In this document: positions 1,422 to 21,064 of the stretch, in pieces
Layout of the letters: every line of letters begins with the position of its first letter
Numbering within the stretch: position 1 is the first letter of the stretch
IMG/VR virus record: IMGVR_UViG_2896589216_000005
DNA: 52,416 nucleotides
Origin: a virus
Lineage: Duplodnaviria; Heunggongvirae; Uroviricota; Caudoviricetes
Strand: one strand, 5' to 3'
The notes under the pieces: generated by a model
The model's input: only the letters and a program-made list of their open reading frames with translations
Told to the model about the DNA's origin: nothing
Database searches by the model: none
Translations under genes and position numbers: made by a program

Positions 1422-3896
1422 TTAAAAATCAGCCTGATTCGGGATCAGTTTTTGCCAGATAACTGAAACGTATTTTGCCTGGTAACGGGCGTCATCAAGT
1501 GCATTATGGCGCTCACCTTCGAATGGAATAGCCGTTCTGGCATCGAAGTCTATGGCTTTCCCCAGCTCAACGATTGTGCGTACATCGCGATCGTTGTAGT
1601 AACGCCACGGGCAGGGGATCCCCTGCCGTTCGTATGAACGGCGCAAAATCGTGTTGTCGAAGTTGGCTCCATTTCCCCAGACCTGAACAAAAAATTCACC
1701 GGAGTTTTCGTCGATAAATTCCCGCAATTGTAACAGTGCATCATCTAACGGGATTTCATCGGTCATAATGGCAGATTGCGCTTCGCGTGATTGCTTAAGC
1801 CACCATTTAATGGTGTCCCGATCAATGACCCCGCCAGCAGTTTCCAGATCGATAGTCTTACTAAATTCCGGTCCCATATCTCCGGTTTGCGGATCGAAAA
1901 ATATTGCACCTATTGAGATGATCGGGGCATCAGGATTTTTTCCCATGGTTTCAAGGTCGATCATTAGATGGTCACACGTCCTGCTGGTGGATGTGATTTC
2001 TTGATGACCGTTCACCTTAATTGAGTGATCTGCCGTCTCGCCAGTTTCATTATCGCTATCGTGATGCTGATTGCCGTCAGTGTTCTCCTTGTGTGGATGT
2101 TCAGCGCCTTCCATTTCCTCCGGATCATCTTCCTGAACTTCAACCTGATACTCTTCATCGAATGTTTCCTGGTATGTTGCGTCGCCCATCACCGCGCCAC
2201 AATCAGGGCAGTTGCCGCCGCCGGTCTGACCGCAGGCGGTGCAGACTTTTTCCACTTCCTGTTGCGCCACTGGTTCAGGCTGTTTCGTTTCTGGCTCGTT
2301 TTGTAACGCATTTGGGCTGTTTTGTTCCGCTTTCTGGCCGTTCTGTTCCGTTTCTTGCTGGTTCTGATTCACTGAATCGCGGGTTTCAATCCCCTTCACC
2401 CATTTCGGATCATTCGGGTCGCTAATCCCTGCAACAAATTCACCACGTGATACAGCAAGCAAATTATTGGCGTCAGGCTGGCTGATATTGGCTGCCTGCA
2501 TAATTTTGTTTACTTCGTCAGCGGTAACTTTTACCGGCTCTGGTTGTGCGATCGTGTCAGATGCACCAGTATTTTGTTGTGAACCTGAGTACGTGCCGTT
2601 TTTACGTGCGAAGTATTCCTCTTTTGTGATTTCCGTAGCTCCCAGGGCCAGTGCTTTTTCCAGACCAGAAAGTTTGTTTGCGCGACCGTATTTTTCGCCG
2701 TCCTTATCGGTGAAAAGGAAGTAGAACGGTCCCTCACGCTCTACAGATGGTTCGTCTTCCACTTCGCATTCGGTTTTTTCGTTGTCCGGCATTGCCGTTT
2801 CCACTGCATCAGTTTCTGGTACTGGTGACGGGAGAGTACCAGCTGTGCCCTGATTTGTTCCTTCGTCATCTTCAAACACGCCCTTGGTAGTCAGGTATTC
2901 AGTGATGTATTTGTTCAGTGCTACGGGATCTTTGTGAATGTCGATCGGACGCTCACGGACAAGGCCAAAAATAGTCTGACGGTCGTAGCGAACGGCATCG
3001 GGTTGTTTGCGCATTGATGCGGAAATGCGCTTCCAGTCTTCGCGATCTTTGTCGATAACTTCATTTTTTGCCCAGCGATGGATGCTGCCGTCAATGTTTC
3101 CGGTATCAATATCGCCAGGCCAGAGAGCGTAGGCCAGTTCTTCATCCAGCGTTTTCCATGTCTGCTTGTATTCGCGACAAATGGCGGCAGTGACTGGGTT
3201 GATTTTTCCTGCTGAGTTTTCAGTGTTCTGTTGATTGACTCTGGCGCTGGCGAGATCAACAACAGACGTGTATTTTCCAGTCTCTTTGCGCTCTGCGTCC
3301 TGCCGTTTTTTCCAGTTACGTAATTCAGCCTGAATTTCGGGCCATTTGGCACCCGGATTACATTTGTGTTTAACCCATCCGATAGCGAACAGTTTGCGTT
3401 CCGGATACATAGCGTTAATTTCAGGCGTTTTCATCAGTGCTTCAACGATATGCCCGTCAAAGGTAGCAACGTCTTCCTGCAGTAATTCCTGCGCGTCAAT
3501 CGCCATATCAACGGTGATGTTTTCACATGTACCGAACTTAACCAGGACCGCGTTCTGTACTTCAAGGGACAGCTTGTCAAAATTGACGTTCATCGGATCG
3601 GATTCTGGTTCGACCGGAATAAAGGAAGCGGATTCCTCATCCCAGCGGTTTTCCTGCATATATTCAGCATCCCAGGAATCGAGGGCAGGGCGGGGTATAC
3701 CGGGTTTATCCTCGCAGACAAGAAATTTATAAGCGCAGTCCTGAGCAGCCGGATAATGTTCCAGGAATTGCCAGTGAAATTTTGCGCGGGCGCGACGTTC
3801 ATCACCGGCTTCAATGGCAGTGGCTACAGCGACGGCACCTTCTTCCTTTATTGCCTGTTCGTCCGGAATGGCGGCGCAAATAAAGACTTTACTCAT
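1422..3896 (-). CDS. Large exonuclease-family protein: C-terminal DEDDh (DnaQ-like) 3-5 exonuclease domain, central CxxC...CxxC zinc ribbon, acidic linker
   Basis: 824-aa ORF; C-terminal MIDLETMG...HNALDDARY motifs typical of DnaQ-like exonucleases; occupies the recombination-module position next to xis. Confidence 0.7.
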   Translation of the reverse strand: MSKVFICAAIPDEQAIKEEGAVAVATAIEAGDERRARAKFHWQFLEHYPAAQDCAYKFLVCEDKPGIPRPALDSWDAEYMQENRWDEESASFIPVEPESDPMNVNFDKLSLEVQNAVLVKFGTCENITVDMAIDAQELLQEDVATFDGHIVEALMKTPEINAMYPERKLFAIGWVKHKCNPGAKWPEIQAELRNWKKRQDAERKETGKYTSVVDLASARVNQQNTENSAGKINPVTAAICREYKQTWKTLDEELAYALWPGDIDTGNIDGSIHRWAKNEVIDKDREDWKRISASMRKQPDAVRYDRQTIFGLVRERPIDIHKDPVALNKYITEYLTTKGVFEDDEGTNQGTAGTLPSPVPETDAVETAMPDNEKTECEVEDEPSVEREGPFYFLFTDKDGEKYGRANKLSGLEKALALGATEITKEEYFARKNGTYSGSQQNTGASDTIAQPEPVKVTADEVNKIMQAANISQPDANNLLAVSRGEFVAGISDPNDPKWVKGIETRDSVNQNQQETEQNGQKAEQNSPNALQNEPETKQPEPVAQQEVEKVCTACGQTGGGNCPDCGAVMGDATYQETFDEEYQVEVQEDDPEEMEGAEHPHKENTDGNQHHDSDNETGETADHSIKVNGHQEITSTSRTCDHLMIDLETMGKNPDAPIISIGAIFFDPQTGDMGPEFSKTIDLETAGGVIDRDTIKWWLKQSREAQSAIMTDEIPLDDALLQLREFIDENSGEFFVQVWGNGANFDNTILRRSYERQGIPCPWRYYNDRDVRTIVELGKAIDFDARTAIPFEGERHNALDDARYQAKYVSVIWQKLIPNQADF

Positions 3897-3991
3897 TTTG
3901 TTTTAACCTCATTACAGATTTCAGGGTGAACGAATCCCTGCCATTGCTGGCATTTTTAATCCGTTGGTATGGCGTTAATATGGCTGGCGGG

Positions 3992-4180
3992 TTATCCAGC
4001 CGGTATTTCGTTATTCAGGTTCAGCGATACTTTTTTTAACGGGAGGCATTCACCGGGGATTTTTTGTTCGTCCCTTACCTGAATGCAGGATGACTTACTG
4101 TCATAAATTCCGGTAATCACATTTTGTGGCTCACCCGTTATAAGAAAAACGGTCATCACCAGTGCAAATGCTGAAGTCAC
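3992..4180 (-). CDS. Small protein with hydrophobic N-terminus downstream of dicB (YdfD-like by position), 62 aa
   Basis: ORF whose GTG start overlaps the dicB stop (GTGA); position matches ydfD of the Qin dicB operon. Confidence 0.45.
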   Translation of the reverse strand: MTSAFALVMTVFLITGEPQNVITGIYDSKSSCIQVRDEQKIPGECLPLKKVSLNLNNEIPAG

Positions 4181-4344
4181 TGCTGTTCTCCGATAATACC
4201 AAGTTCAAGAAGGGCAATTCTGGAAAGTATGGAATTATCATTGAGAAGATAAGGTTCATATTTTCTCATCTTAATGGCATCTTCCGTAAACTCCCGGTTA
4301 CTGAGCAGAACACCAATATCAAAACAACCGGTAATGACTCCAAC

Positions 4345-4722
4345 TTATTGATAGTGTTTTATGTTCAGATAATGCCCGATGACTTTGTCATGCAGCTCCA
4401 CCGATTTTGAGAACGACAGCGACTTCCGTCCCAGCCGTGCCAGGTGCTGCCTCAGATTCAGGTTATGCCGCTCAATTCGCTGCGTATATCGCTTGCTGAT
4501 TACGTGCAGCTTTCCCTTCAGGCGGGATTCATACAGTGGCCAGCCATCCGTCATCCATATCACCACGTCAAAGGGTGACAGCAAGCTCATAAGACGCCCC
4601 AGCGTCGCCATAGTGCGTTCACCGAATACGTGCGCAACAACCGTCTTCCGGAGCCTGTCATACGCGTAAAACAGCCAGCGCTGGCGCGATTTAGCCCCGA
4701 CGTATCCCCACTGTTCGTCCAT
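4345..4722 (-). CDS. insB: IS1 InsB (transposase frame, normally expressed as InsAB fusion by -1 frameshift)
   Basis: 125-aa ORF matching IS1 InsB. Confidence 0.9.
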
Positions 4723-4766
4723 TTCCGCGCAGACGATGACGTCACTGCCCGGCTGTATACGCGAGG

Positions 4767-5042
4767 TTACCGACTGCGGCCTGAGTTTTTTAAGTGACGT
4801 AAAATCGTGTTGAGGCTAACGCCCATAATGCGTGCAGTTGCCCGGCATCCAACGCCATTCATGGCCATATCAATAATTTTCTGGTGCGTACCGGGTTGAG
4901 AAGCGGTGTAAGTGAACTGCAGTTGCCATGTTTTACGGCAGTGAGAGCAGAGATAGCGCTGATGTCCGGCAGTGCTTTTGCCGTTACGCACCACCCCGTC
5001 AGTAGCTGAACAGGAGGGACAGCTGATAGAAACAGAAGCCAC
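4767..5042 (-). CDS. insA: IS1 InsA
   Basis: 91-aa ORF matching IS1 InsA (zinc-finger N-terminus CPSC...CSHC). Confidence 0.92.
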
Positions 5043-5315
5043 TGGAGCACCTCAAAAACACCATCATACACTAAATCAGTAAGTTGGCAGCATCACCAAA
5101 CAACCTTCAGACGTATTAACGTTTGGTAATAACGTTTCCATTATCGCGTCCTCAACAATGAATTTTGTGATGCGGTGCCTGGTGCCTCCAGGTGACGTTA
5201 ACCAGTTAACAATTAACGCCGGATACAGAGAATCCACCCATAACACTGTTTTTGGTTTTAACTGTTCTGCGTGCGCTCAGCCGCATTCACCACATCACAA
5301 AATTCACTTTAAAAA

Positions 5316-5368
5316 GGGCGGCAGAGCAGTCACGGAGTAAAACTGATACCGCCAAACGTCACCAGAAA
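5316..5368 (-). ncRNA. dicF: DicF small regulatory RNA (53 nt) followed by U-tract
   Basis: Reverse complement of 5316-5368 reads UUUCUGGUGACGUUUGGCGGUAUCAGUUUUACUCCGUGACUGCUCUGCCGCCC followed by UUUUU, matching the DicF sequence as recalled. Confidence 0.88.
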
Positions 5369-5673
5369 ATTGATAACAGAGGGCGTTGCAGCGGGGTTGT
5401 CACTTAAGCGTATGGTCAACCTGACAACCCGGTGTCCTCAGCGGGGGAAGGAATAACCCCGCCATACTTACCGCCGCGCCATTTCGCGGATTGCCACAAC
5501 CGGAAGCGCACGATCGAATTAAATTTAACGACGACCTATACAGAGAGACTAACTTCTCCGGGCGCTTTCGTGTTATGCCCTGACTTTTCAGGGATATATC
5601 CTTTTCAGTAAACTGTCAGTGCCGGATTCTTATCCGTGTCCGGCGCACGCACTCTACCTCACCTGTGAATAAA

Positions 5674-6060
5674 TTAATGATTAATTGATATTTTGTTGTT
5701 TGATTCAACTTTCCCATCGGATGTGTGATGCTTTAAATCACAGGAATTAATACTGCTTGCTGTAAAATGATTTTCAAGGGGTTCTATTCGAATCCCTTTC
5801 TTTTTCATTAACAAGCCAAACCCCTTATCAATGATGTCCATTAGATCCAGGAAGTATTTTTCATGTAAATCCTGGTTATCAGAGAGCTGCTTCTCTTCGT
5901 ACAGCCCGATAAAGGCTCGGCGTACGTTACCGGATATATTGTCGATGGTTTCTTTTTCTACGGTACTCAGGTCAAGAGTCGCCAGTTGAGAGCGAACCAC
6001 ATTCGATGCCATTTCCTGGAATGGTACTGGTAAATCTTTAAATTCCATCGTCAACCTCAT
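5674..6060 (-). CDS. Hypothetical protein in the dicB operon (128 aa)
   Basis: ORF whose start overlaps the upstream gene stop (ATGA at 6060); lies between the ydfA-like gene and dicF. Confidence 0.5.
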   Translation of the reverse strand: MRLTMEFKDLPVPFQEMASNVVRSQLATLDLSTVEKETIDNISGNVRRAFIGLYEEKQLSDNQDLHEKYFLDLMDIIDKGFGLLMKKKGIRIEPLENHFTASSINSCDLKHHTSDGKVESNNKISINH

Positions 6061-6317
6061 CAGTCGGAGTTTCTTGCTAACCAGCGACGCGCGCCAGCTT
6101 CGGTTTTAAACGTTTTGCTTTTGGTATACGTCATGGCGGTGAATGTGCCGTCCTGGTTGGGGAGCACACCACATACCAGAGATTCGCTGTTGCCAAGATC
6201 GATAGTATCCATGCTGACCTCATTACCCCTTAACGCCGGGTAGCGGAACTGTTTGCTGAGAACACCGTGCGGTGTCTTGATGGGTGGTAATTTAGTTTTC
6301 TCATGAATGTTGGTCAA
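6060..6317 (-). CDS. ydfA: YdfA-like small protein (first gene of dicB operon); true start may be the internal ATG at 6212 (50 aa)
   Basis: ORF track start is TTG at 6317 with no SD; internal Met (MDTIDLG...) has a GAGG SD and gives a 50-aa product of YdfA size. Confidence 0.55.
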   Translation of the reverse strand: MTNIHEKTKLPPIKTPHGVLSKQFRYPALRGNEVSMDTIDLGNSESLVCGVLPNQDGTFTAMTYTKSKTFKTEAGARRWLARNSD

Positions 6318-6326
6318 GCATTTTTA

Positions 6327-6340
6327 ATGAGAAAACTCAA
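6327..6340. promoter_or_regulatory. Operator-like palindrome ATGAGAAAACTCAA upstream of the dicB operon
   Basis: Near-perfect inverted repeat TGAG-AAAA-CTCA; second copy at 6860-6873; the pair flanks the repressor gene. Confidence 0.4.
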
Positions 6341-6401
6341 CATTTAATGCAAAATAAAGCCAATACATTGAAATGTAAGGCTTTAAAATTTGTGAAGGGG
6401 G

Positions 6402-6809
6402 TTACTGATGTTTGTTACGTTTGCGAGCTTCTAGTAGCTCGGTGAATAGGCGATTAAAATTCTCAACGCGGGCACGGAGTTCGCTGATTTGTGCTTGCTG
6501 CTCTGATTTTGGAAGTGCGCGATACAATCGCAACATCTCCAACTCATCTTCCGATAAGTCTAAGGCGCTGTTGAGTGCTACTGGTGGATCTGGTGTTTTA
6601 TCCTCGTCACCAAACAGTATCCAAGTTGGTGAACATTGCAATACCTCAGCCAGGCGATGCAAATTTTGCCCGCGCGGGGCTGTATGGTCGCTTTCCCATA
6701 GTGAAATTGATGAGCCAGATACGCCAGCGGCTTTGCTTAAATCGTTTTGACTTAAACCAACCTGTTTGCGTCTTTCTCTAATTCGTTGACCTAAAGTTTT
6801 CTCGTTCAT
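6402..6809 (-). CDS. dicA: DicA-like HTH repressor (XRE family), 135 aa
   Basis: N-terminal HTH (QRIRERRKQVGLSQNDLSKAAGVS) and LQCSPTWILFGDEDK segment match DicA; divergent from a Cro-like gene. Confidence 0.85.
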   Translation of the reverse strand: MNEKTLGQRIRERRKQVGLSQNDLSKAAGVSGSSISLWESDHTAPRGQNLHRLAEVLQCSPTWILFGDEDKTPDPPVALNSALDLSEDELEMLRLYRALPKSEQQAQISELRARVENFNRLFTELLEARKRNKHQ

Positions 6810-6859
6810 ATTTAGATATCTTAATAACCCTTGACTCGAGATTCCTTGAATGATTGCTA

Positions 6860-6873
6860 TTGAGAAAACTCAA
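6860..6873. promoter_or_regulatory. Operator-like palindrome TTGAGAAAACTCAA in the dicA/dicC divergent promoter region
   Basis: Perfect inverted repeat TTGAG-AAAA-CTCAA, 13 nt upstream of the dicC-like start and next to its SD. Confidence 0.45.
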
Positions 6874-6886
6874 CTTTGGAGGGGTG

Positions 6887-7114
6887 ATGTTTAAATCAGA
6901 CGTAATTAATTTTTATGGGACGAAAGCCAAAGTAGCGAAAGCTGCTGGTGTTGATCCATCTGCTGTTTCTCAATGGGGGGAACTGGTTCCTGAAGGTCGC
7001 GCGATGCGCCTGCAAGAGGCATCCGGCGGGGAACTTCAGTACGACCCCAAAGTTTATGACGAATATCGTAAGGCAAAGCGGGCGGGGCGGTTGAACAATG
7101 AAAATCACCCCTGA
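6887..7114 (+). CDS. dicC: DicC-like Cro-type regulator (75 aa)
   Basis: ATG at 6887 preceded by GGAGGGG SD; VPEGRAMRLQEASGGELQYDPKVY matches DicC/YdaS-type Cro proteins. Confidence 0.78.
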   Translation: MFKSDVINFYGTKAKVAKAAGVDPSAVSQWGELVPEGRAMRLQEASGGELQYDPKVYDEYRKAKRAGRLNNENHP

Positions 7115-7649
7115 ACAGGTTTGTGAGGCTCTGGATGCCTGGGTATGTCGACCAGGAATGACACAGGAGCAAGCGACGATATTAATCACGGAAGCATTCT
7201 GGGCTCTGAAAGAACGCCCGAACATCGATGTTCAACGCGTCACGTTTAATGATGGCGAGGTTGATCAACGGGCGCTGGGCGTTAACCGGGTGAAGATATT
7301 CGAACGCTGGAAAGCTATCGACACCAGGGATAAGCGGAAAAAATTCACGGCGCTGATTCCGGCAATTATGGAGGCTATCCGAATTAGTGATTTCAGGTTG
7401 TATCGTGAGATCAGTGATGGAAAAAGCATTACGTACATGATCGCCGGATTAAACAAAGAATATGGCGATGTGGTGGAGTCCGGGCTGCTTTTTGCGGATC
7501 CAGCTGTTGTGGAACGTGAGACTGACGAGCTTATAGAAAAAGCTATTGCTTTCAAGCATGCGTATCGTCAGCAATATCAATATTACTTTGCAGATAAACA
7601 AATGTCTGCCAGGGGTTTGTATGAGTATCGATGCACTACGATGGGCTAA
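7098..7649 (+). CDS. YdaT-like (CII-position) regulatory protein, 183 aa
   Basis: Immediately follows the Cro-like gene with overlap; N-terminus MKITPEQV resembles YdaT family. Confidence 0.5.
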   Translation: MKITPEQVCEALDAWVCRPGMTQEQATILITEAFWALKERPNIDVQRVTFNDGEVDQRALGVNRVKIFERWKAIDTRDKRKKFTALIPAIMEAIRISDFRLYREISDGKSITYMIAGLNKEYGDVVESGLLFADPAVVERETDELIEKAIAFKHAYRQQYQYYFADKQMSARGLYEYRCTTMG

Positions 7650-8661
7650 AAAGGTGAAAACCGGCAGTTCATCCAGTAAGTCTGTATTGACCTGGCTTGC
7701 TGATATGTGCGGTGCCGATTTGTGTGCATACCCGTCTGTATCTGCACTGGCAGAAGTAACGGAACTAAACAAAAAGACTGTGCAGGACAGCTTACGACAC
7801 CTGATGGAGATTGGGTTAATTGTTGATACCGGTGAGAGAAAAGGCAGAACAAAGCAAATTGTGGTGTACCGACTTATCGGTGTAGAAGAAAGTGTTGCCG
7901 AGCCTGAATACACCCAAAAACGGGAGTCTTTAAAGGTGGGTAAAATTGGTGCTGTTAGTAAAAACAGTACCGAAAATGGTTATGTTTCAGCACAAAACAG
8001 ACCCAAAAACGGAACTCTTAGCTGCATGGAAAATAACCAAAGACACCCAAATTTTCCATCAAAGACACCCAAAAACGGATCACGGAACCCAAAGGAACCC
8101 AAAGATCTAAACCCCACACATAACGCACGCGAGAGTGCTCCGACCAGTGAGCAGGAAGTTTTGTCGTTACAGGCAGCACCCCTTGTATTCCTGGATGGCC
8201 TGAGCGAACCCATCGGAAAATATCCGATGACCGATAGCTGGTATCCGTCACGGGATTTTCGACGACGGGCTGCGTTGTGGGGGATGGCTTTGCCGGAGAC
8301 AGAATTTACACCTGCTGAACTTGCCGCCTTCCGGGACTACTGGGCAGCGGAGGGGAAAGTGTTTACGCAGATTCAGTGGGAGCAGAAATTCGCCCGTCAC
8401 GTAAATCACGTCAGGGCGCAGGTTAAACCAGTCAGCAAGGGGGTAAACCATGCAGCAGCACCAGGTGGCACCGCATCACGGGCAGTTCAGGAAATTCGGG
8501 CAGCACGTGAGCAGTGGGAACGTGAAAACGGATTTATCAGCGACGGAAACGGTCTGGAAGCTGTGGGAACTCATGGGGGAGGTTTATTCGAACCGCTGGA
8601 CCCAGAAGAACGGGGCCGCACCTTCGAAGCTCTGGATTGCACAGATTGGCGCGATGACTGA
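7621..8661 (+). CDS. Replication initiation protein (O-like, N-terminal wHTH)
   Basis: ATG at 7621 (MSIDALRWAKK...); position before the P-like gene; stop overlaps the P start (ATGACTGA). Confidence 0.72.
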   Translation: MSIDALRWAKKVKTGSSSSKSVLTWLADMCGADLCAYPSVSALAEVTELNKKTVQDSLRHLMEIGLIVDTGERKGRTKQIVVYRLIGVEESVAEPEYTQKRESLKVGKIGAVSKNSTENGYVSAQNRPKNGTLSCMENNQRHPNFPSKTPKNGSRNPKEPKDLNPTHNARESAPTSEQEVLSLQAAPLVFLDGLSEPIGKYPMTDSWYPSRDFRRRAALWGMALPETEFTPAELAAFRDYWAAEGKVFTQIQWEQKFARHVNHVRAQVKPVSKGVNHAAAPGGTASRAVQEIRAAREQWERENGFISDGNGLEAVGTHGGGLFEPLDPEERGRTFEALDCTDWRDD

Positions 8662-9115
8662 GCAGCAAATCCGACAGGTCTGCCGCCAGTGCATGGACCG
8701 CTGCCGGGCGGGTGAAACATGGCCTCCGGACCTGGCTGAGTTTGTGGCGCTGATTTCAGAAAGCGGGGCCAATCCATTTGGCCTGACGGTGGATGCTGTG
8801 ATGGAGGAGTACCGCCGCTGGCGTGATGAGTCCTGGCGATATGACGGAAGCGACAAATATCCGTGGCCTCAGCCTGTGCTGTACCACATCTGCCTCGAAA
8901 TGCGTACCAGAGGGATTGAGCGCCAGATGACGCAGGGTGAGTTAAAACGACTTGCGGAACGGCAACTGACGAAATGGGCAAAGCATGTTGGTAACGGGAT
9001 GAGTGTTCCGCCAGTGCGACGACAACTGGAAGGGGCGAAACACCCGCAAGGGCCAACGCCAATTGAACGGCTGAAACAGGAATACGAACGCCGGAAGGCA
9101 GCTGGTTTTATTTGA
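8450..9115 (+). CDS. P: Replication protein P-like (helicase loader); start uncertain (8450, 8573 or 8654)
   Basis: C-terminal two thirds align with lambda P (YPW...TQGELKRLAERQLTKWAKH); ATG at 8654 is coupled to the O-like stop. Confidence 0.7.
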   Translation: MQQHQVAPHHGQFRKFGQHVSSGNVKTDLSATETVWKLWELMGEVYSNRWTQKNGAAPSKLWIAQIGAMTEQQIRQVCRQCMDRCRAGETWPPDLAEFVALISESGANPFGLTVDAVMEEYRRWRDESWRYDGSDKYPWPQPVLYHICLEMRTRGIERQMTQGELKRLAERQLTKWAKHVGNGMSVPPVRRQLEGAKHPQGPTPIERLKQEYERRKAAGFI

Positions 9116-9130
9116 ATCTGAGAAACGATT

Positions 9131-9919
9131 TTGTCGGAGGAAATTTTAATGGAAACCGTATTTGACGCACTGAAAGCAATGGGAAAAGCCACATCGGTAG
9201 AACTGGCCGCGCGACTTGATATCAGTCGTGAAGAGGTTCTCAACGAGCTGTGGGAACTCAAAAGAAATGGCGTCGTTGATAAAACTGGTCACACCTGGTT
9301 TCTGGCTGGCGAAGGTGAATCCCGGGTAACCGAAGAGCGGCCAGTAAAATCTGAAGCACAGGATATGCTGACCGGGGAGGTCGAACAAAAAGTTACCGCA
9401 GACATGATGATTGAGTTTATCGGTCAGGATGGTGCTAAAACGTGTGAGGAACTGGCGGGTAAGTTCGGCGTCAGTACTCGCAAGGTTGCCTCCACGCTGG
9501 CGGTGGTAACCGCAACGGGGCGGCTGGCACGCGTTAATCAGAACGGTAAATTTCGTTACTGCATGCCGGGCGATAATTTACCAGCAGAGCCGAAAGCCGC
9601 GCTGGTAACGGAAAGTGATGGTAAGGCCTTTCCTCAGCCAGCAGGTGCTGCGTTACCAGTCCGGGAAGCCGCAACACAGGAAGAAATTAAAACAGAAACT
9701 GTGGCGGACATTGTGCAGCCGTTGCCATCGTTTACCGAAACGCAAGCAGATGAGCTGATTTTTCCGTCCCTTCGCAGGGCAAACCTGGCGCTGCGCAGGG
9801 CGAAAAGTGATGTTCAGAAGTGGGAGCGAGTCTGCGCCGCGCTGCGGGAGCTGAACAAGCACCGGGATATTGTTCGACAGATTACTGATTCTTCCCGCCG
9901 TGTTGTATCGGAAAAGTGA
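9131..9919 (+). CDS. Hypothetical phage protein with N-terminal winged-helix (DUF1627-like), 262 aa
   Basis: ORF; N-terminal wHTH-like segment ([28 protein letters not shown]). Confidence 0.55.
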
Positions 9920-10327
9920 TTGCCGGAGGCGCTTATGGCAAAAGTATTTACACCAGAAGAGCGGGAAGAAGTGAAGGCGCGCATTGTGGAATTCGTGCGC
10001 CTGAGCGGACGAGAAACTTTTCGACAACTGGCAGATAAAACGGGTGTCAGTAAGACCGCTATTCGTCGTTTATCTGGTGCGCTTGCGGCCAGTGGTGATG
10101 TCTGGCTCTCTGGTTGCGGGGTATTTCCATCAGAGCAGGCGTATCGCGTATGGCGTAAGACACCGGAGAAGGCTGCTGACCCGACACTGATTCGAAAGTT
10201 ACCTGACGGAGAAATACGTCGTTACAACAGACGGCAGAACATAATTTGTCGTGAGTGCCGCCAGAGCGAAGTTATGCAGCGTGTGCTGGCGTTCTATCGG
10301 GGAAACTTTCAGGAGGTGATGGAGTGA
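9920..10327 (+). CDS. Hypothetical phage protein, 135 aa
   Basis: ORF tightly packed in the early operon. Confidence 0.5.
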   Translation: MPEALMAKVFTPEEREEVKARIVEFVRLSGRETFRQLADKTGVSKTAIRRLSGALAASGDVWLSGCGVFPSEQAYRVWRKTPEKAADPTLIRKLPDGEIRRYNRRQNIICRECRQSEVMQRVLAFYRGNFQEVME

Positions 10328-10620
10328 GGGTCAGAGTTTATATTGCCGGTCCAATGACGGGATATGAAAATTTCAACCGTGAGGCGTTTCACAAGGCGGA
10401 AGAGGAACTGAAACGGGAAGGGCATACCGTCTTAAACCCGGCAGTACTTCCGGACGGGCTGACACAGCCGCACTACATGGATATTTGCATGGCAATGATT
10501 CGTTGTGTGGATGCGATTTACATGCTGAATGGCTGGCAGCGGTCAGCGGGCGCTAAGGCAGAGCTGGCACTGGCGGAGAAACTGGGGCATGCAGTGATTT
10601 ATCAGGAGGTGGCTCAATGA
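10324..10620 (+). CDS. DUF4406 / nucleoside 2-deoxyribosyltransferase-like small protein (98 aa)
   Basis: GTG start overlapping the upstream stop, AGGAGG SD; VYIAGPMTG...N-terminal motif typical of the deoxyribosyltransferase-like fold. Confidence 0.55.
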   Translation: MRVRVYIAGPMTGYENFNREAFHKAEEELKREGHTVLNPAVLPDGLTQPHYMDICMAMIRCVDAIYMLNGWQRSAGAKAELALAEKLGHAVIYQEVAQ

Positions 10621-11078
10621 GAGAGGTTAACTATGAGGCGCTTCGTGAGGCAGCACAAAACTATCAGTCGACGCTGGCGTGGTATCAGGCTATCCCGGAC
10701 AGCCCAAATGCTGAACGGGATTGTGATGCGGCTCTTGCTGCGTTTAAGCGTCACATCCGTCATCGGGAAGCGGATATTATCGCTGATTTGCTGGATGGAC
10801 TGGAAGAAGCAAAATCACAACTCAAAGAGCAGCGTGAGTATTACGAAGGCGTTATCTCTGATGGGAGCAAGCGTATTGCTGAACTGGAAGCGCGGGAAGT
10901 TCAATTACCGACTCGCTACGACCTTCGATATGGACACCCGATAAATGCAGATGAGCGACATGTCATGATACCTAAAGAAAATGGCAGTTGGCTTTACCTG
11001 ATTGACCTAGAACACGCATTACGCGTCGCTGGCATTCGCATCAAAGGAGAGGAGCATGGAAATAAAACCAGAGGATGA
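10617..11078 (+). CDS. Hypothetical phage protein, 153 aa
   Basis: ORF with start overlapping the upstream stop. Confidence 0.5.
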   Translation: MREVNYEALREAAQNYQSTLAWYQAIPDSPNAERDCDAALAAFKRHIRHREADIIADLLDGLEEAKSQLKEQREYYEGVISDGSKRIAELEAREVQLPTRYDLRYGHPINADERHVMIPKENGSWLYLIDLEHALRVAGIRIKGEEHGNKTRG

Positions 11079-11412
11079 GTTAAGCAATATCGTTTTATTT
11101 CCGGTAAAAGAGGATGACCCTCGTAATCAGGTTAATTTTCTTTATGAGCCATCGGAAAGACCATATTGTCATCACGCCTCTGTTCGGGTTGACGAAAAAG
11201 AGCGTCAGGTCCGCTGTAAAATCTGCGGTGCAGTTGTGGAGCCATTTGACTGGATGCTCTCTGTGGCGAAAAGAGAAACCAGACTGGCAGATGATGTAAG
11301 GCTATTGCGCCAGGAGGAACAGGAAAGGCGGAAAAATATAGAAAAGTTAATTCAGATTGAGCGTAACGCGAAAGCGCGGATATGCAGGGCGACAAAATCC
11401 AGAACTGAATAA
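11056..11412 (+). CDS. Hypothetical protein with CxxC zinc-ribbon motif, 118 aa
   Basis: ORF; CKICGAVVEP motif. Confidence 0.45.
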   Translation: MEIKPEDELSNIVLFPVKEDDPRNQVNFLYEPSERPYCHHASVRVDEKERQVRCKICGAVVEPFDWMLSVAKRETRLADDVRLLRQEEQERRKNIEKLIQIERNAKARICRATKSRTE

Positions 11413-11507
11413 TTAAATTTAGCACTGTAAATAAAATCAAATCCTTAACCGGAGGGATTTCTGCACCCTCAGAACATCAGGAGGCCGTCCGAAAGGGCGG
11501 TAGTGAA

Positions 11508-11690
11508 ATGCGAAAATTCAAAATAATTATTGAAACGGGAATAGCCGGTGGAGATTTCGAGGATGAATTCGAAGTGGATGATGATGCAACACCAGATGAA
11601 ATACAGGATGAAGCTAAAGATATTTTCTTTAACTACTGCAATTACTCATACCACGAAATAAAAGACGAAGAGGAAGAACAAAATGGCTGA
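11508..11690 (+). CDS. Small acidic protein, 60 aa
   Basis: ORF; highly acidic (D/E-rich). Confidence 0.4.
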   Translation: MRKFKIIIETGIAGGDFEDEFEVDDDATPDEIQDEAKDIFFNYCNYSYHEIKDEEEEQNG

Positions 11691-11859
11691 TTTTGGTTCA
11701 ACTAAATATAACGCCAGTTTTGAAGAATGGCATGAACTGTTAATGGATTATGCAGAGTTACGCGGTGGAAGTGCCGCTGATGCTGAAGCATGGCGTGATG
11801 ATTATGAAGCAGGGAAAACACCGGTCGAAGCATATTGTGATGAGTGGGGCGATGAATGA
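11683..11859 (+). CDS. Small hypothetical protein, 58 aa (below the ORF-track length cutoff)
   Basis: ATG at 11683 overlaps the upstream stop; its stop overlaps the next start (ATGA at 11856). Confidence 0.4.
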   Translation: MADFGSTKYNASFEEWHELLMDYAELRGGSAADAEAWRDDYEAGKTPVEAYCDEWGDE

Positions 11860-12215
11860 GCGAGATTAATTATCAGGAAGGGCATGAAAAGGCAGGGCAG
11901 GCAAAACCAGTGGCATGGCGATATCGCTACGTGAAAAAAGGCGTTACAGACTTTCAGGGGAAGCAGTGGGTTGGTGACTGGAAATATGTCCCGACAAAAG
12001 AGGATTGTAACGACAGACCAAACTATGAAATTCAGGCGTTATTCACGGCCCCGCCAGCTTCGGTGACATCAGAAGGACTGGTTAAAGCTGTGCGCTTTTA
12101 TGAACAGGTACGGCGTGAGGATCCGCCAGTTGAAACCGGAGCATGGAAAGACGCTATTGACTGGGTACTCAAGGAGGCCTGCCTGGTTGTAAACACGGGC
12201 ATCAAAGGAGGCTGA
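11856..12215 (+). CDS. Hypothetical phage protein, 119 aa
   Basis: ORF, translationally coupled. Confidence 0.5.
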   Translation: MSEINYQEGHEKAGQAKPVAWRYRYVKKGVTDFQGKQWVGDWKYVPTKEDCNDRPNYEIQALFTAPPASVTSEGLVKAVRFYEQVRREDPPVETGAWKDAIDWVLKEACLVVNTGIKGG

Positions 12216-12431
12216 ATGGGTATTGCCGCAAGTTATACCATGCATCTCTATTGTGATTGCCGCCAGTGTACGGATGGCAAATATCAGTCGCCAGATTTTG
12301 GTGAGTATATGGGTACGTCATGGGCTGGCTGTGCAAAAGAGGCACGTAAAGATGGGTGGCGAATAAGTGCCGACAAAACGCGTGCTTTTGCGCCAGGGCA
12401 TAAAATTTTGAGGAGCAACAAAGGAGAGTGA
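12216..12431 (+). CDS. Small Cys-rich hypothetical protein, 71 aa
   Basis: ORF starting 1 nt after the upstream stop. Confidence 0.45.
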   Translation: MGIAASYTMHLYCDCRQCTDGKYQSPDFGEYMGTSWAGCAKEARKDGWRISADKTRAFAPGHKILRSNKGE

Positions 12432-12432
12432 T

Positions 12433-12651
12433 GTGCCTACATTATTCAGAAAAGAATATCCGCGAAAAAGTAGAGCGACAGAATTTTTGTTTCTCATTCT
12501 GTTTATCGTGTTGATGATACCGATATCCCCGTTAATTCTGGTATGGGGAATCGGAAAAATAATTGAGCCAGTTATTGAATTGTATAACGACGTGGTATGG
12601 GCTCCGTTCAACACACTGCACAATAAAATTAATCCGTATAAGGAAAACTGA
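12433..12651 (+). CDS. Small membrane protein, 72 aa
   Basis: ORF with a strongly hydrophobic core (FLFLILFIVLMIPISPLILVWGIG). Confidence 0.45.
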   Translation: MPTLFRKEYPRKSRATEFLFLILFIVLMIPISPLILVWGIGKIIEPVIELYNDVVWAPFNTLHNKINPYKEN

Positions 12652-12652
12652 T

Positions 12653-12916
12653 ATGGCAACTTTGACAAAAAAAGAACAGGCATGGTTGAACGAATTACAG
12701 GACGTTCTTGATCGCTGTCCATCACCGAAAAAAATTGGTTTTTACACCATTGGCGATAAAAGCATTTACCTGTATGACCTGCGCCGCATGGATGAAATCA
12801 TGGAGGCTCTTGATAATCGTTCGTCAATGGATTGGTGTGTTGCTGTCCATGATATGAATGCAGGGTTTGATGAAAAGATTTTGTTCCCCTCATCAGTTGA
12901 AAGCACTGCGGGTTAA
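12653..12916 (+). CDS. Hypothetical phage protein, 87 aa
   Basis: ATG at 12653 just after the upstream stop. Confidence 0.45.
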   Translation: MATLTKKEQAWLNELQDVLDRCPSPKKIGFYTIGDKSIYLYDLRRMDEIMEALDNRSSMDWCVAVHDMNAGFDEKILFPSSVESTAG

Positions 12917-12926
12917 GGAGTAACAC

Positions 12927-13094
12927 ATGACCACTATTACCAAAGAACGTATTGAATTGTTCATTAAAAACCCGCTTGAAAACGGGCTTACCCGTGGTGA
13001 ACAAATGGAACTGGCACGGATTGCGCTGGCATCGCTGGAAGCAGAGCCGGTTGTGTTCTGGTTTGAAAAATATCAAGAAGGGGCTACGGCATGA
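12927..13094 (+). CDS. Small hypothetical protein, 55 aa
   Basis: ATG at 12927 preceded by AAGGAG SD; stop overlaps the next start (ATGA). Confidence 0.4.
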
Positions 13095-13293
13095 CGACTT
13101 TTACCAGAGAGCAGTTAATAGCTCACGCAGAGGAGACTATTGAAGCACAGAGACTGTGCATACCGGGCACAATCGACCATGACATCATCCGCACATATAA
13201 GATAGACTGGCCCCCTGAATCTCCAGACAACCAGTATCACTTAAATAAGTGATAGTCTTAATACTAGTTTTTAGACTAGTCATTGGAGTACAG

Positions 13294-13659
13294 ATGATTG
13301 ATGTCTTAGGGCCGGAGAAACGCAGACGGCGTACCACACAGGAAAAGATCGCAATTGTTCAGCAGAGCTTTGAACCGGGGATGACGGTCTCCCTCGTTGC
13401 CCGGCAACATGGTGTAGCAGCCAGCCAGTTATTTCTCTGGCGTAAGCAATACCAGGAAGGAAGTCTTACTGCTGTGGCCGCCGGAGAACAGGTTGTTCCT
13501 GCCTCTGAACTTGCTGCCGCCATGAAGCAGATTAAAGAACTCCAGCGCCTGCTCGGCAAGAAAACGATGGAAAATGAACTCCTCAAAGAAGCCGTTGAAT
13601 ATGGACGGGCAAAAAAGTGGATAGCGCACGCGCCCTTATTGCCCGGGGATGGGGAGTAA
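13294..13659 (+). CDS. insC: IS2 InsC (orfA)
   Basis: 121-aa ORF from [14 protein letters not shown]6G slippery site before stop. Confidence 0.9.
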
Positions 13660-14522
13660 GCTTAGTCAGCCGTTGTCTCCGGGTGTCGCGTGCGCAGTTG
13701 CACGTCATTCTCAGACGAACCGATGACTGGATGGATGGCCGCCGCAGTCGTCACACTGATGATACGGATGTGCTTCTCCGTATACACCATGTTATCGGAG
13801 AGCTGCCCACGTATGGTTATCGTCGGGTATGGGCGCTGCTTCGCAGACAGGCAGAACTTGATGGTATGCCTGCGATCAATGCCAAACGTGTTTACCGGAT
13901 CATGCGCCAGAATGCGCTGTTGCTTGAGCGAAAACCTGCTGTACCACCATCGAAACGGGCACATACAGGCAGAGTGGCCGTGAAAGAAAGCAATCAGCGA
14001 TGGTGCTCTGACGGGTTCGAGTTCTGCTGTGATAACGGAGAGAGACTGCGTGTCACGTTCGCGCTGGACTGCTGTGATCGTGAGGCACTGCACTGGGCGG
14101 TGACTACCGGCGGCTTCAACAGTGAAACAGTACAGGACGTCATGCTGGGAGCGGTGGAACGCCGCTTCGGCAACGATCTTCCGTCGTCTCCAGTGGAGTG
14201 GCTGACGGATAATGGTTCATGCTACCGGGCTAATGAAACACGCCAGTTCGCCCGGATGTTGGGACTTGAACCGAAGAACACGGCGGTGCGGAGTCCGGAG
14301 AGTAACGGAATAGCAGAGAGCTTCGTGAAAACGATAAAGCGTGACTACATCAGTATCATGCCCAAACCAGACGGGTTAACGGCAGCAAAGAACCTTGCAG
14401 AGGCGTTCGAGCATTATAACGAATGGCATCCGCATAGTGCGCTGGGTTATCGCTCGCCACGGGAATATCTGCGGCAGCGGGCTTGTAATGGGTTAAGTGA
14501 TAACAGATGTCTGGAAATATAG
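13617..14522 (+). CDS. insD: IS2 InsD (orfB transposase, DDE)
   Basis: 301-aa ORF in the -1 frame relative to insC. Confidence 0.9.
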
Positions 14523-14766
14523 GGGCAAATCCAAAGATGGATATTGCTGTTCTGGAAATCGCACTGGTATCGCTGGCAGCAGAGCCAGCCGGTAAATTGC
14601 ATGAATACAAACCAGTGGGATATCAGCGTCTGGTCGATGAGTTAACCATGCTGGTAAAGCAGTTAACCTGGCAACTGAGGAAAGCGAAGCCAGACTGCAA
14701 ATTACCGGATAAGGCGATGAGTTATCTGGAGCGGAACGGACTGATAAGCGTGGAGGATATTTTACG

Positions 14767-14850
14767 ATGACCTGGCCTGAAGCATTAACAACGGTAGGAA
14801 TTGCGATGGCGGTGGCGCTGGTGGTGTATTCGATTTGCCGCTGGGGATAA
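14767..14850 (+). CDS. Possible 27-aa hydrophobic peptide
   Basis: ATG overlaps the upstream stop (ATGA); product MTWPEALTTVGIAMAVALVVYSICRWG; too short to be confident. Confidence 0.25.
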   Translation: MTWPEALTTVGIAMAVALVVYSICRWG

Positions 14851-15061
14851 AAACGGTTTGCGGGAAAAGGAGAGTTAAGTAGAATTGCAGCGGGTGCTTG
14901 AGGCTATCTGTCTCAGGCATGAACACCAAAAGGCAGATAGAGAAAAGCCCCAGTTAACATTACGCGTCCGGCAAGACGCTTAACATTAATCTGAGGCCAT
15001 ATCTATGCTCTACACACGTAGGTTAGCCTCTTACGTGCCGAAAGGCAAGGAGAAGCAGGCT

Positions 15062-15217
15062 ATGAAGCAGCAAAAGGCGATGCTAATCGCCCTGATCGTC
15101 ATCTGTTTAACCGTCATTGTGACGGCACTGGTAACGAGGAAAGACCTCTGCGAGGTACGAATCCGAACCGGCCAGACGGAGGTCGCTGTCTTCACAGCTT
15201 ACGAACCTGAGGAGTAA
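15062..15217 (+). CDS. hok: Hok/Gef-family membrane toxin (51 aa)
   Basis: MKQQKAMLIALIVICLTVIVTALVTRKDLCEVRIRTGQTEVAVFTAYEPEE matches the Hok family signature (closest recalled member HokD/RelF). Confidence 0.8.
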   Translation: MKQQKAMLIALIVICLTVIVTALVTRKDLCEVRIRTGQTEVAVFTAYEPEE

Positions 15218-15285: not shown

Positions 15286-15318
15286 AACCCGCTTCGGCGG
15301 GTTTTTGTTTTTATTTTC
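15286..15318 (+). terminator. Rho-independent terminator after hok
   Basis: GC hairpin CCCGCTTCGGCGGG followed by T-run. Confidence 0.5.
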
Positions 15319-15433
15319 AACGCATTTGAAGTTCTGGACGGTGCCGGAATAGAATCAAAAATACTTAAGTAGCGCGCAGGGATAAGAGGGATGGTCCCTT
15401 AAAGGGGAGAGCTAATTATCCGGAAGGATTCTG

Positions 15434-15685
15434 ATGATGAACATCGAAGAGCTGCGTAAAATTTTTTGTGAAGATGGCCTCTATGCTGTGTGCGTTGAAA
15501 ATGGAAATATTGTTAGTCATTACCGCATTGTGTGTTTGCAAAAAAATGGGGCTGCGTTAATTAATTTTGTGGATGCCCGAGTGACGGACGGATTTATCTT
15601 GCGCGACGGTGAGTTTGTCACTTCATTACAGGTATTGAAAGAGATCGGAATAAAAGCTGGCTTTTCTGCTTTTTCAGAAGAATAA
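15434..15685 (+). CDS. Hypothetical protein, 83 aa (Rem-like by position and size)
   Basis: ORF between hok and the DUF968 gene, as rem is in Qin. Confidence 0.45.
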   Translation: MMNIEELRKIFCEDGLYAVCVENGNIVSHYRIVCLQKNGAALINFVDARVTDGFILRDGEFVTSLQVLKEIGIKAGFSAFSEE

Positions 15686-15751
15686 ACTCATCTACAATCT
15701 TGCGCGGGGCTGAACTCCCGCTGAGTAACACCGTGCCACCGGAGAAAACCG

Positions 15752-16030
15752 ATGGCACGCAACGCAAAATATTACAAACATGATAATTCGACCGTTCTTG
15801 CCCACACGCACGAGCGGTATTCTCACGCATTTAAGTCAGACTGGTACCAGCATCCCCCATGCACTGAAGAACAGGCCGAATGGCTCATTCAGTGTTACCG
15901 CAGGCGCGGATGCGAGGTTAAAAAAGCCCTTAGCCTCGACTACCGTCACTGGATAATCTCCGTCAGGCTTCCTTACTCCGAACGCCCACCGCGTCTGTCC
16001 CGCACATACCAGCAACGCATCTGGAGATAA
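15752..16030 (+). CDS. Hypothetical protein, 92 aa
   Basis: ORF ending 1 nt before the DUF968 gene start. Confidence 0.4.
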   Translation: MARNAKYYKHDNSTVLAHTHERYSHAFKSDWYQHPPCTEEQAEWLIQCYRRRGCEVKKALSLDYRHWIISVRLPYSERPPRLSRTYQQRIWR

Positions 16031-17090: not shown

Positions 17091-17465
17091 ATGCTCATAG
17101 ATTTGGTTTTACCTTACCCGCCGACGGTGAACACTTACTGGCGACGCCGTGGCAGCACATATTTTATCTCGGAGGAGGGAAAGCGTTATCGCCGGGCTGT
17201 GGCGCTTATTGTTCGCCAGCAGCGGCTGAAATTAATCCTGTCCGGAAGGCTGGCGATAAAGGTGATTGCAGAGCCACCGGATAAGCGTCGTCGCGACCTG
17301 GACAATATCCTGAAAGCACCGCTGGATGCGCTGACGCATGCGGGAGTGTTAATGGACGATGAGCAGTTTGATGAAATCAATATCGTTCGTGGTCAGCCAG
17401 TATCTGGTGGACGTATGGGGGTGAAGATTTACCCCATAATGCATGAAGAGCAGGTCAAAAAATGA
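17091..17465 (+). CDS. rusA: RusA-family Holliday junction resolvase
   Basis: 124-aa ORF; YPPTVNTYWRRRG and RRRDLDN motifs of RusA. Confidence 0.85.
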   Translation: MLIDLVLPYPPTVNTYWRRRGSTYFISEEGKRYRRAVALIVRQQRLKLILSGRLAIKVIAEPPDKRRRDLDNILKAPLDALTHAGVLMDDEQFDEINIVRGQPVSGGRMGVKIYPIMHEEQVKK

Positions 17466-18283
17466 AACTGGAAGATTTACCGAAATACTACTCCCCAAAA
17501 TCCCCTGGCCTGACCGATGTATCGGCCTCAACGTCAAAAGATGCGCTGAGTATCACTGATGTGATGGCCGCGCAGGGCATGACACAGAATCGGGCTGAGA
17601 TGGGGTTTTCTGCGTTCCTGGGGAAAATGGGCATCAGTATGAATGACAGGGCGCGGGCAACAGAATTACTGGCAGATTATGCACTCAGTCGGTGCGATCG
17701 TGTGGCGGCGTTGAGAAAACTTCCGGCAGAAATAAAACCGGTAGTGATGCGCATTATGGCTTCGTACGCTTTTGAGGATTATGCCCGCAGCGCAGCGAGT
17801 AAAAAGCAGTGCCCTTGTTGCTATGGGGAAAAATTTATTGAAAGCGTAGTTTTTACAAACAAGGTCCAGTATCCGGATGGTAAGCCGCCGGTATGGGCAA
17901 AGTGTACGAAAGGTGTGTATCCGTCTTACTGGGAAGAATGGAAAAAAGTCAGGGAGGTGGTAAAAGTTGCCTGTCCGGAGTGTGGCGGAAAGGGTGAGGT
18001 TTCCACCGCCTGTAAGGATTGCCGTGGGCGTGGTGTCGCCATTCATCGTGAAGAGTCGGTAAAACGTGGTATGCCTGTTATCAGAGACTGCCAGCGTTGT
18101 GGTGGTCGTGGCTGTGAAAGACTACCATCAACGGAGGCATTTAATGCCATATGCAAAGTGACGAGTGCTATCACGCTTGATACGTGGAAAAAATCAGTGA
18201 AACGCTTTTACGATACGTTGGTGGTTCGGTTTGACATTGAAGAGGCATGGGCGGAGCGGCAGTTAAAGAGGGTAACGCGATAG
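17462..18283 (+). CDS. Q: Late-gene antiterminator Q (zinc-binding type)
   Basis: 273-aa ORF with multiple CxxC pairs, located just upstream of a promoter/terminator pair and the late genes. Confidence 0.78.
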   Translation: MKLEDLPKYYSPKSPGLTDVSASTSKDALSITDVMAAQGMTQNRAEMGFSAFLGKMGISMNDRARATELLADYALSRCDRVAALRKLPAEIKPVVMRIMASYAFEDYARSAASKKQCPCCYGEKFIESVVFTNKVQYPDGKPPVWAKCTKGVYPSYWEEWKKVREVVKVACPECGGKGEVSTACKDCRGRGVAIHREESVKRGMPVIRDCQRCGGRGCERLPSTEAFNAICKVTSAITLDTWKKSVKRFYDTLVVRFDIEEAWAERQLKRVTR

Positions 18284-19956: not shown

Positions 19957-20032
19957 GGCCCTTTAGCTCAGTGGTGAGAGCGAGCGACTCATAATCGCCA
20001 GGTCGCTGGTTCAAATCCAGCAAGGGCCACCA
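19957..20032 (+). tRNA. ileZ: tRNA-Ile2 (anticodon CAU, lysidine type; ileZ-like)
   Basis: 76-nt cloverleaf by hand folding; anticodon loop CUCAUAA; near-identical to recalled ileX; encodes 3-prime CCA. Confidence 0.85.
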
Positions 20033-20039
20033 TCACATA

Positions 20040-20116
20040 CCGCCATTAGCTCATCGGGATAGAGCGCCAGCCTTCGAAGCTGGTTGCGCGGGGTTCGAGT
20101 TCTCGATGGCGGTCCA
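20040..20116 (+). tRNA. argO: tRNA-Arg (anticodon UCG)
   Basis: 77-nt cloverleaf by hand folding; anticodon loop CUUCGAA; T-loop TTCGAGT; encodes CCA. Confidence 0.78.
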
Positions 20117-21035: not shown

Positions 21036-21064
21036 ATTGATTTTGTCAGATGTGAGTAAACTCC

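Follow-up and report, generated by a model that had tools for sequence, protein, structure and literature searches.

A packed array of small accessory genes between the replication genes and Q in a Rac-like lambdoid prophage of Escherichia coli

The 52,416-nt stretch IMGVR_UViG_2896589216_000005 (referred to below as the window) contains a run of small, tightly packed genes at approximately 9131–13203, and the question is what such a run is for: whether it is a counter-defence island, a set of genes serving the lysogen, decaying DNA, or the accessory part of an ordinary early region. The window contains a Rac-like lambdoid prophage of E. coli in full length, from the integrase to the tail fibers, and it is highly probable that the run is an ordinary accessory gene array of this prophage. 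As a lambda-P-like gene (8654–9115) lies to the left and the Q gene (17462–18283) to the right, the block occupies the slot of the ren–nin region of lambda.

Packing, conservation and position of the array

Open reading frames (ORFs) were listed over positions 8000–14500 and each junction was checked in the DNA. The span 9149–13203 comprises 12 complete plus-strand genes and a thirteenth one split by an insertion sequence, and is 97% coding. An earlier note on this DNA, made from the sequence, had described at least twelve small packed ORFs, and this description agrees well with our results: nine of the 12 junctions overlap or are spaced by at most 1 nt, true ATGA or GTGA overlaps accounting for four. 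In gene order, the spacings are +15, –4 (GTGA), –4 (ATGA), –23, +95, –8, –4 (ATGA), 0, +1, +1, +10, and –4 (ATGA) nt. The start of the block at 9131, given in the same note, corresponds to a TTG-extended ORF start, while RefSeq has the ATG at 9149; other elements are found at or near the positions it listed, and the two ORFs that it placed under its listing cutoff are the 58-aa and 55-aa genes (less than 60 aa). Clear Shine–Dalgarno sequences were seen by eye in the upstream 20 nt at about ten of the 13 starts. The array thus combines stop/start overlaps with Shine–Dalgarno sequences, as is expected of a coupled operon, the coupling itself being predicted from sequence.

Several observations show that the array is not a product of chance: the Shine–Dalgarno sequences, matches to PHROG families for all 13 genes, low ratios of nonsynonymous to synonymous differences (pN/pS from 0.00 to 0.42 against diverged homologs, wherever computable), and recurrence of the same gene order in 80 IMG/VR loci. 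All array genes are under purifying selection. Pfam families were assigned to seven genes, and none to the other six of the 13 proteins, even at E 5. One antisense frame, 12318–12725 on the minus strand (135 aa), was considered as a coding candidate and rejected because its pN/pS is 0.58–0.86, compared to 0.13–0.42 for the overlapping sense genes. This frame matches phrog_20982 (E 1.7e-56), and that family has probably been built from mis-called antisense frames.

The whole array shows 99.8% identity to the prophage of E. coli 042 (NC_017626.1, 1406906–1410875) and to that of NCTC86, and the RefSeq gene calls on E. coli 042 give the same genes with the same starts. Among 5,426 complete E. coli genomes, 105 have at least 80% of the array and 3,930 have parts of it; the genes are also conserved in isolated phages. 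One further match comes from PP818812.1, Actinobacillus phage vB_Apl-pPE4, which covers 51% of the block at 91% DNA identity; from a phage of Pasteurellaceae one would not expect this, and the record may be mislabelled or contaminated.

From left to right, the prophage contains the integrase, exonuclease, DicF and dicB, an immunity region with the repressor, YdaS and YdaT, the O-like gene with a DnaT domain (7621–8661), the P-like gene, and the array, followed by hok/sok, DUF968, RusA, Q, tRNAs, and the lysis and structural genes. Positions 1–8100 of the window match E. coli 042 (positions 1–8965 of its locus, L001) in a patchy way, with 91–95% identity in fragments, and from 8101 rightwards the identity is 99%; this jump therefore marks a recombination joint inside the O-like replication gene.

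No RNA family from Rfam was found within 9131–13100, and the promoter and terminator scan was uninformative, yielding fewer sites than in shuffled sequence. Elsewhere in the prophage, Rfam matches are DicF (5316–5367, minus strand), the sok antitoxin RNA (14892–15067, plus strand) with hok downstream, and a plus-strand set at 20382–20575, 20851–21039, 50842–51040, and 19957–20113, comprising two STnc100, IS009, and two tRNAs.

Collinearity with E. coli 042 is lost at 13203/13204 and regained at 14534. The intervening 1.33-kb insert has terminal inverted repeats and two transposase ORFs with PHROG matches, is flanked by a five-base duplication, and is recognizable as IS2. The gene that it splits is intact in E. 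coli 042 (L001 13961–14305) and matches phrog_660 (E 8e-43). The preceding 55-aa protein, consisting of the Ea22/EaA-like N-terminal module alone, matches phrog_3323, phrog_60, and phrog_660, and its counterpart in phage vB_EcoS-689R5 is annotated as "EaA protein". These two genes share a 29-nt direct repeat (13020–13048 and 14558–14586, 86% identical) encoding IAL(A/V)SL(E/A)AEP, common to both proteins; recombination between the repeat copies would delete the intervening sequence.

Table 1. Genes of the array and the adjoining insertion, in window coordinates.
Feature	Coordinates	Strand	Length and remarks
DUF1627	9149–9919	+	256 aa
DUF977	9935–10327	+	130 aa
DUF4406	10324–10620	+	98 aa; GTG start; GTGA overlap with DUF977
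Ead/Ea22-like	10617–11078	+	153 aa; ATGA overlap with DUF4406
Zn-ribbon	11056–11412	+	118 aa; 23-nt overlap with the Ea22-like gene
DUF7167	11508–11690	+	60 aa
58-aa gene	11683–11859	+	8-nt overlap with DUF7167
119-aa gene	11856–12215	+	ATGA overlap with the 58-aa gene
71-aa gene	12216–12431	+	abuts the preceding stop (TGAATG)
DUF4014	12433–12651	+	72 aa; GTG start 1 nt past the preceding stop
87-aa gene	12653–12916	+	phrog_1714
55-aa gene	12927–13094	+	Ea22/EaA-like N-terminal module
114-aa Ea22-like gene, 5' part	13091–13203	+	37 codons; ATGA overlap with the 55-aa gene; cut at 13203/13204
IS2 (IS3 family)	13204–14533	+	AAGAT target duplication; outside the array proper
114-aa gene, 3' part	14534–14770	+	translation corresponds to residues 37–114 of the E. 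coli 042 protein

Predicted products

The third gene encodes the motif VRVRVYIAGPMTG (YIAGPMTG), from which the earlier note had proposed a DUF4406-like protein with the same gene limits, and the family call is right: the product scores 129.7 bits with PF14359 (cut-off 22), its residues 4–93 aligning to profile positions 2–91 of 91, and matches phrog_355, named nucleoside 2-deoxyribosyltransferase (NDT). An AlphaFold2 model, built with an alignment of 38 relatives, is a four-stranded alpha/beta structure with a predicted local distance difference test score (pLDDT) of 91.6, and has the flavodoxin-like alpha/beta fold common to NDT, DNPH1, and MilB. The best Foldseek matches are deoxyribosyltransferases of T. 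brucei, Leishmania, and Chroococcidiopsis, followed by the MilB/BcmB CMP N-glycosidases and human DNPH1; the template modeling (TM) scores of the former are 0.73–0.78, while the targets have 131–158 residues and TM normalized to target length is about 0.5. The family is very large, with 18,079 members (clusters at 50% identity) found at E ≤0.001 in a HMMER scan of 1.84 billion representatives.

In the best 146 of these 18,079 representatives, Glu80 is present in 137, Ser74 in 140, and Gly76 in 138, and Glu80 is invariant among close relatives. Tyr6 (in V-Y-I-A-G) is Tyr in 121 and Phe in 18 of the 146; it occupies the end of strand 1, as do Tyr7 of NDT and Tyr24 of DNPH1, and the local alignment RVRVYIAGPMTG / RPALYFCGSIRGG agrees with this placement. 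In enzymes of the NDT type, the helix that follows strand 3 carries the catalytic nucleophile at its N-terminal end, namely Glu98 in NDT of L. leichmannii, Glu104 in DNPH1, and Glu88 in the C. thermalis enzyme. Glu80 sits within S74-x-G76-A77-x-x-E80, and by eye S74-A-G-A-K-A-E80-L-A-L-A resembles S98-L-G-V-G-Y-E104-L-G-R-A of DNPH1 (the latter sequence confirmed against PDB), and the two motifs have equivalent positions in the succession of secondary-structure elements. Asp53 is a candidate counterpart of Asp72/Asp92 of NDT, Asp80 of DNPH1, and Asp62 of the C. thermalis enzyme. The active-site mutants in the Chroococcidiopsis structure entries, Y7F/A9S, D62N, and E88Q, have nearly the spacing of Tyr6/Ala8, Asp53, and Glu80. 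Judging from the element order and the motif match, Glu80 would correspond to the known nucleophile. We infer these equivalences, and do not read them from alignments, because hmmsearch, hhalign, and pairwise alignment with L. leichmannii NDT and human DNPH1 are significant nowhere beyond the N-terminal strand–loop–helix; PDB sequence searches with the protein and its profile gave nothing relevant.

The DUF4406 protein is therefore best described as a putative N-glycosidase or transferase, with a nucleoside or nucleotide as the presumed substrate and Glu80 as the probable nucleophile. It shares the fold with the NDT/DNPH1 (Rcl)/MilB–BcmB superfamily, but has only 98 aa and four strands and no match at the sequence level, and should not be filed as an NDT proper. 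An additional argument for a nucleotide pathway, suggested by PHROG matches named "MazG-like pyrophosphatase" and "hydrolase", was dropped because ten long representatives contain no second Pfam domain.

The first two genes encode a YdaW-family DUF1627 protein (PF07789, 328 bits; phrog_630, E 8.5e-136; WP_000450705.1 in E. coli 042) and a basic DUF977 protein (pI 9.9; PF06163, 141.6 bits). The former has sub-threshold helix-turn-helix (HTH) matches at residues 4–48 and 84–137 (winged-helix-like), followed by the DUF1627 C-terminal domain. The latter belongs to the Ren family: it matches phrog_142 "Ren-like exclusion protein" (E 1.2e-43, positions 1–115 of 116) and lambda Ren itself (BLASTP, E 8e-8, 29% identity over 90 aa). 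With Ren, lambda escapes exclusion by Rex, a phenotype known for lambda ren only. Both the DUF1627 protein and the Ren homolog are predicted winged-helix DNA binders.

Ea22-like N- or C-terminal modules are common to four proteins, of 153, 119, 55, and 114 aa. The 153-aa protein is an Ead/Ea22 family member (PF13935, 46.1 bits, cut-off 27; phrog_250, E 2e-41), 38% identical to residues 1–118 of lambda Ea22 (E 5e-15). The 119-aa protein, carrying both modules, matches phrog_660 (E 7e-43) and, C-terminally, phrog_250; it has no Pfam match and its gene has pN/pS 0.22. PDB sequence search gave no match for either of them.

The CxxC ribbon protein mentioned in the earlier note is the product of the fifth gene (phrog_1621, E 1.9e-55; sub-threshold match to the TFIIB Zn-ribbon). 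The CHCC set is C38, H40, and C54-x-x-C57; in the family alignment, Cys54 and Cys57 are invariant and Cys38 and His40 nearly so. The family comprises 126 proteins, found only in Enterobacterales prophages. In the model (pLDDT 73), the N-terminus is disordered and is followed by a small ribbon and a long, conserved helix 63–117 (pLDDT >90). The overlap of this gene with the Ea22-like one (11056–11078) is retained in the Shiga toxin (Stx) phage ArgO145 (positions 5029–5051 of its locus, L003), and fused Ea22–ribbon proteins are present in the database (P0121, 202 aa, and P0163). The retained overlap and the fusions therefore suggest that the two proteins act together; they hint either at a functional pair or at frameshift-prone gene calls.

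The two next proteins are strongly acidic: the DUF7167 protein (PF23768, 54.5 bits; phrog_1997) has net charge –15 and pI 4.05, and the 58-aa protein (phrog_519, E 8.5e-23; no Pfam match even at E 5), net charge –12. The 71-aa protein has four Cys residues, matches phrog_926 (E 1.6e-35; no Pfam match; pN/pS 0.16), and is homologous to L0068 of phage 933W. DUF4014 (PF13198, 89.7 bits; phrog_1832; pN/pS 0.18–0.42) is the small membrane protein that had been noticed earlier, predicted to be single-pass, with a hydrophobic segment at residues 19–37 and a Kyte–Doolittle 19-residue maximum of 3.0. The 87-aa protein matches its PHROG family with E 6e-51 and has no Pfam match; pN/pS of its gene is 0.13.

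Possible roles of the array

The earlier note regarded the block as an early accessory module of the kind where host-takeover or anti-defence functions are common. By position, with the O- and P-like genes upstream and Q downstream, the early accessory module stands, while none of the genes could be tied to a known function of either kind in PADLOC, NCBIfam, or PDB. The idea remains a plausible one, slightly supported by the Ren homolog and the acidic mini-proteins. Taken as an explanation of the whole array, it implies a counter-defence or host-takeover island, where DUF4406 would act by destroying an immune signal or substrate derived from nucleotides, the acidic proteins would mimic DNA against restriction or RecBCD-type nucleases, and the Ren homolog would neutralize abortive infection. 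We consider such an island unlikely. No gene matches a characterized anti-defence protein by sequence, and the acidic proteins resemble nothing solved. PADLOC, applied to ten of the 13 proteins (all but those of 87, 55, and 114 aa), gave only weak winged-HTH matches for the two HTH proteins (best E 3.9e-5, 21.6 bits) and nothing for the other eight, and no NCBIfam match exceeded the cut-offs. Literature searches gave no link of DUF4406, DUF7167, DUF4014, DUF977, or DUF1627 to defence; nothing specific was found on NDT-like anti-defence proteins or on screens of nin-region accessory genes, and these genes are absent from the accessory-gene preprint of Silas et al. Moreover, DUF4406 is closest in structure to enzymes of metabolism (N-glycosidases and transferases) and not to those of signalling, and the one studied Ea22-family homolog affects lysogeny and not defence (PMC7093339). 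A more specific proposal, that DUF4406 is a counter-defence enzyme acting on an immune signal, a NAD-related molecule, or a modified nucleotide, and that DUF7167 and the 58-aa protein form a new pair of DNA mimics or inhibitors, seems to us quite improbable; as regards DUF4406, it is motivated by the conserved Glu80 and by structural kinship to N-glycosidases and to TIR/SLOG immune domains. If true, it would make the array a compact portable set of anti-defence cassettes, moving between leftward and rightward lambdoid early operons.

Prophages often carry host-protecting genes, and many exclusion proteins are small membrane proteins, so that DUF4014 could be taken as a sign of lysogen-expressed morons, providing superinfection exclusion or anti-phage defence for the host, in place of early lytic genes. 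The data speak against it, and we assign this explanation a very low probability: the genes lack promoter/terminator pairs of their own and form part of an early operon with overlapping codons, Stx phages hold the same genes inside the leftward early operon, and no defence model gave a convincing score. Still less can be said for non-functional DNA of a defective prophage, with the ORFs being relics or chance frames. Rac-like prophages are often defective, and the last gene is indeed broken by the insertion, but twelve genes are intact and have pN/pS of 0.00–0.42, against 0.58–0.86 for the antisense ORF in the same test, and the array is kept in the 105 complete genomes and in isolated phages, within a prophage that is full-length; decay is practically incompatible with these data.

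We hence return to an ordinary accessory array in the ren–nin slot. Its genes would be transcribed as a single delayed-early transcript from the rightward early promoter, as suggested by their position and spacing, and because tight packing is expected to cause translational coupling, the products would appear together early after induction or infection. They would be individually dispensable modulators and not housekeeping genes. The DUF4406 protein may be a minimal enzyme of the NDT/DNPH1 type, with Glu80 probably serving to cleave an N-glycosidic bond in a nucleoside or nucleotide. A bias of the lysis–lysogeny decision, similar to that caused by Ea22 in lambda and phage 24B, is the probable role of the Ea22-like protein together with the Zn-ribbon/coiled-coil protein coupled to it. 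The two strongly acidic mini-proteins are probably binding inhibitors or mimics, and DUF4014 is a predicted inner-membrane protein.

Some observations weigh against this interpretation or parts of it. Rightward early transcription and translational coupling are deduced from position and spacing, and the biochemical functions of individual genes are predictions. In DUF4406, Asp53 is invariant in enterobacterial relatives, yet present in only 69 of the 146 family representatives. The protein terminates at residue 98, five residues past strand 4, and therefore has no C-terminal active-site segment of its structural relatives, in which this part supplies Asn123 and the C-terminal Tyr157 (NDT) or Ser128 (DNPH1). 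The alignment of the 153-aa protein ends at residue 118 of lambda Ea22, leaving the Ea22 C-terminal domain unmatched. The Zn-ribbon model has no significant structural neighbor in PDB, the best being the TFIIB ribbon with E 0.19, and no solved relatives were found for the DUF7167 and 58-aa proteins.

The sequence, gene calls, and families of the array are already public (DUF1627, DUF977, DUF4406, Ead/Ea22, DUF7167, DUF4014, and several PHROGs), and its architecture is textbook for lambdoid early regions. The value of the locus is that it points to common, little-studied genes, including a very large family with a catalytic-looking Glu. The same cassettes occur in Shiga toxin phages, in a region reported to influence the choice between lysis and lysogeny and hence toxin release. 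Clones of the array genes are reasonable inclusions in anti-defence and developmental screens, with no surprising result predicted.

Cassette exchange and comparison with other lambdoid phages

The 80 IMG/VR loci were obtained by a search with the DUF4406 profile. They have 46 different gene-order strings, with the genes in the same relative order everywhere except for two loci. A nearly constant pair is formed by DUF7167 and the 58-aa gene, which the 119-aa gene accompanies in most cases; the 71-aa, DUF4014, and 87-aa genes, by contrast, are frequently missing. In the Stx phage ArgO145, counterparts of the Zn-ribbon (99% protein identity), DUF7167 (98%), 58-aa (93%), DUF4014 (88%), and 114-aa (99%) genes follow in the same order as in the array, and in phage 933W, L0068 and L0067 correspond to the 71-aa and DUF4014 genes with approximately 93% DNA identity. 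As these three comparisons demonstrate, the array consists of interchangeable cassettes, present or absent across related prophages with their order preserved.

Several local features agree with this mosaicism, as does the sharing of Ea22-like modules by four of the proteins. At 11 kb, the GC content changes from about 0.52 to 0.44. A single intergenic gap of notable size, 11413–11507 (95 nt), is a mosaic joint, where ArgO145 has an extra gene (split match); just ahead of the DUF7167 start it contains a small GC hairpin (GAAA loop), and its folding does not differ significantly from that of shuffled sequence (z –1.47). A conserved 14-nt repeat GCATCAAAGGAG(A/G)(G/C) is located at the 3' ends of three genes (11038–11051, 12199–12212, and 12415–12428), each time providing the Shine–Dalgarno sequence of the following gene, and is a possible recombination linker between cassettes. 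To the right of the array, two genes that follow hokD in the E. coli 042 and NCTC86 prophages are missing from the window; these prophages also have no IS2 in the last array gene. In E. coli 042 (L001 14918–16652, corresponding to about 15307–15800 of the window), the two genes between hokD and DUF968 encode a hypothetical and an HTH protein, and this is another cassette difference.

In lambda, the ren–nin region resembles the array in its slot after the replication genes and before Q, in packed overlapping small genes, and in the presence of ren, whose homolog is second in the array; it differs in that the recombination-type DUF968 and RusA genes are here located further downstream, outside 9131–13100. 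The translated lambda genes ren, ninB–ninI, and those from exo to xis were compared with all 13 array proteins by BLASTP, and only Ren and Ea22 were found. None of NinB–NinI has a match among the 13 proteins, and therefore, together with the six proteins without a Pfam family, the array is not simply a set of known nin proteins, the alternative considered in the earlier note. Lambda orf60a, orf61, orf63, and ea8.5 have no counterpart among the 13 proteins either.

The other region to be compared is the exo–xis, or ea, region of lambda, P22, and Stx phages (ea22, ead, eaA, and 933W L0063–L0069). It is dispensable in lambda and phage 24B and shifts the lysis–lysogeny balance (PMC10789677, PMC7093339); Ea22 favors lysogeny (PMC7093339, PMC10834534), and the C-terminal domain of lambda Ea22 has been solved by nuclear magnetic resonance (PMC10834534). 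The ArgO145 copies of the cassettes (gp10–gp18 region) belong to the leftward early operon and are located between recombination genes (exo) and int, and the 933W copies lie between exo and xis. The array of the Rac-like prophage was probably assembled by cassette exchange with such regions of other lambdoid phages. It shares with them the Ea22/Ead family member and the additional Ea22-like modules, whereas its own location is in the rightward operon, between P and Q.

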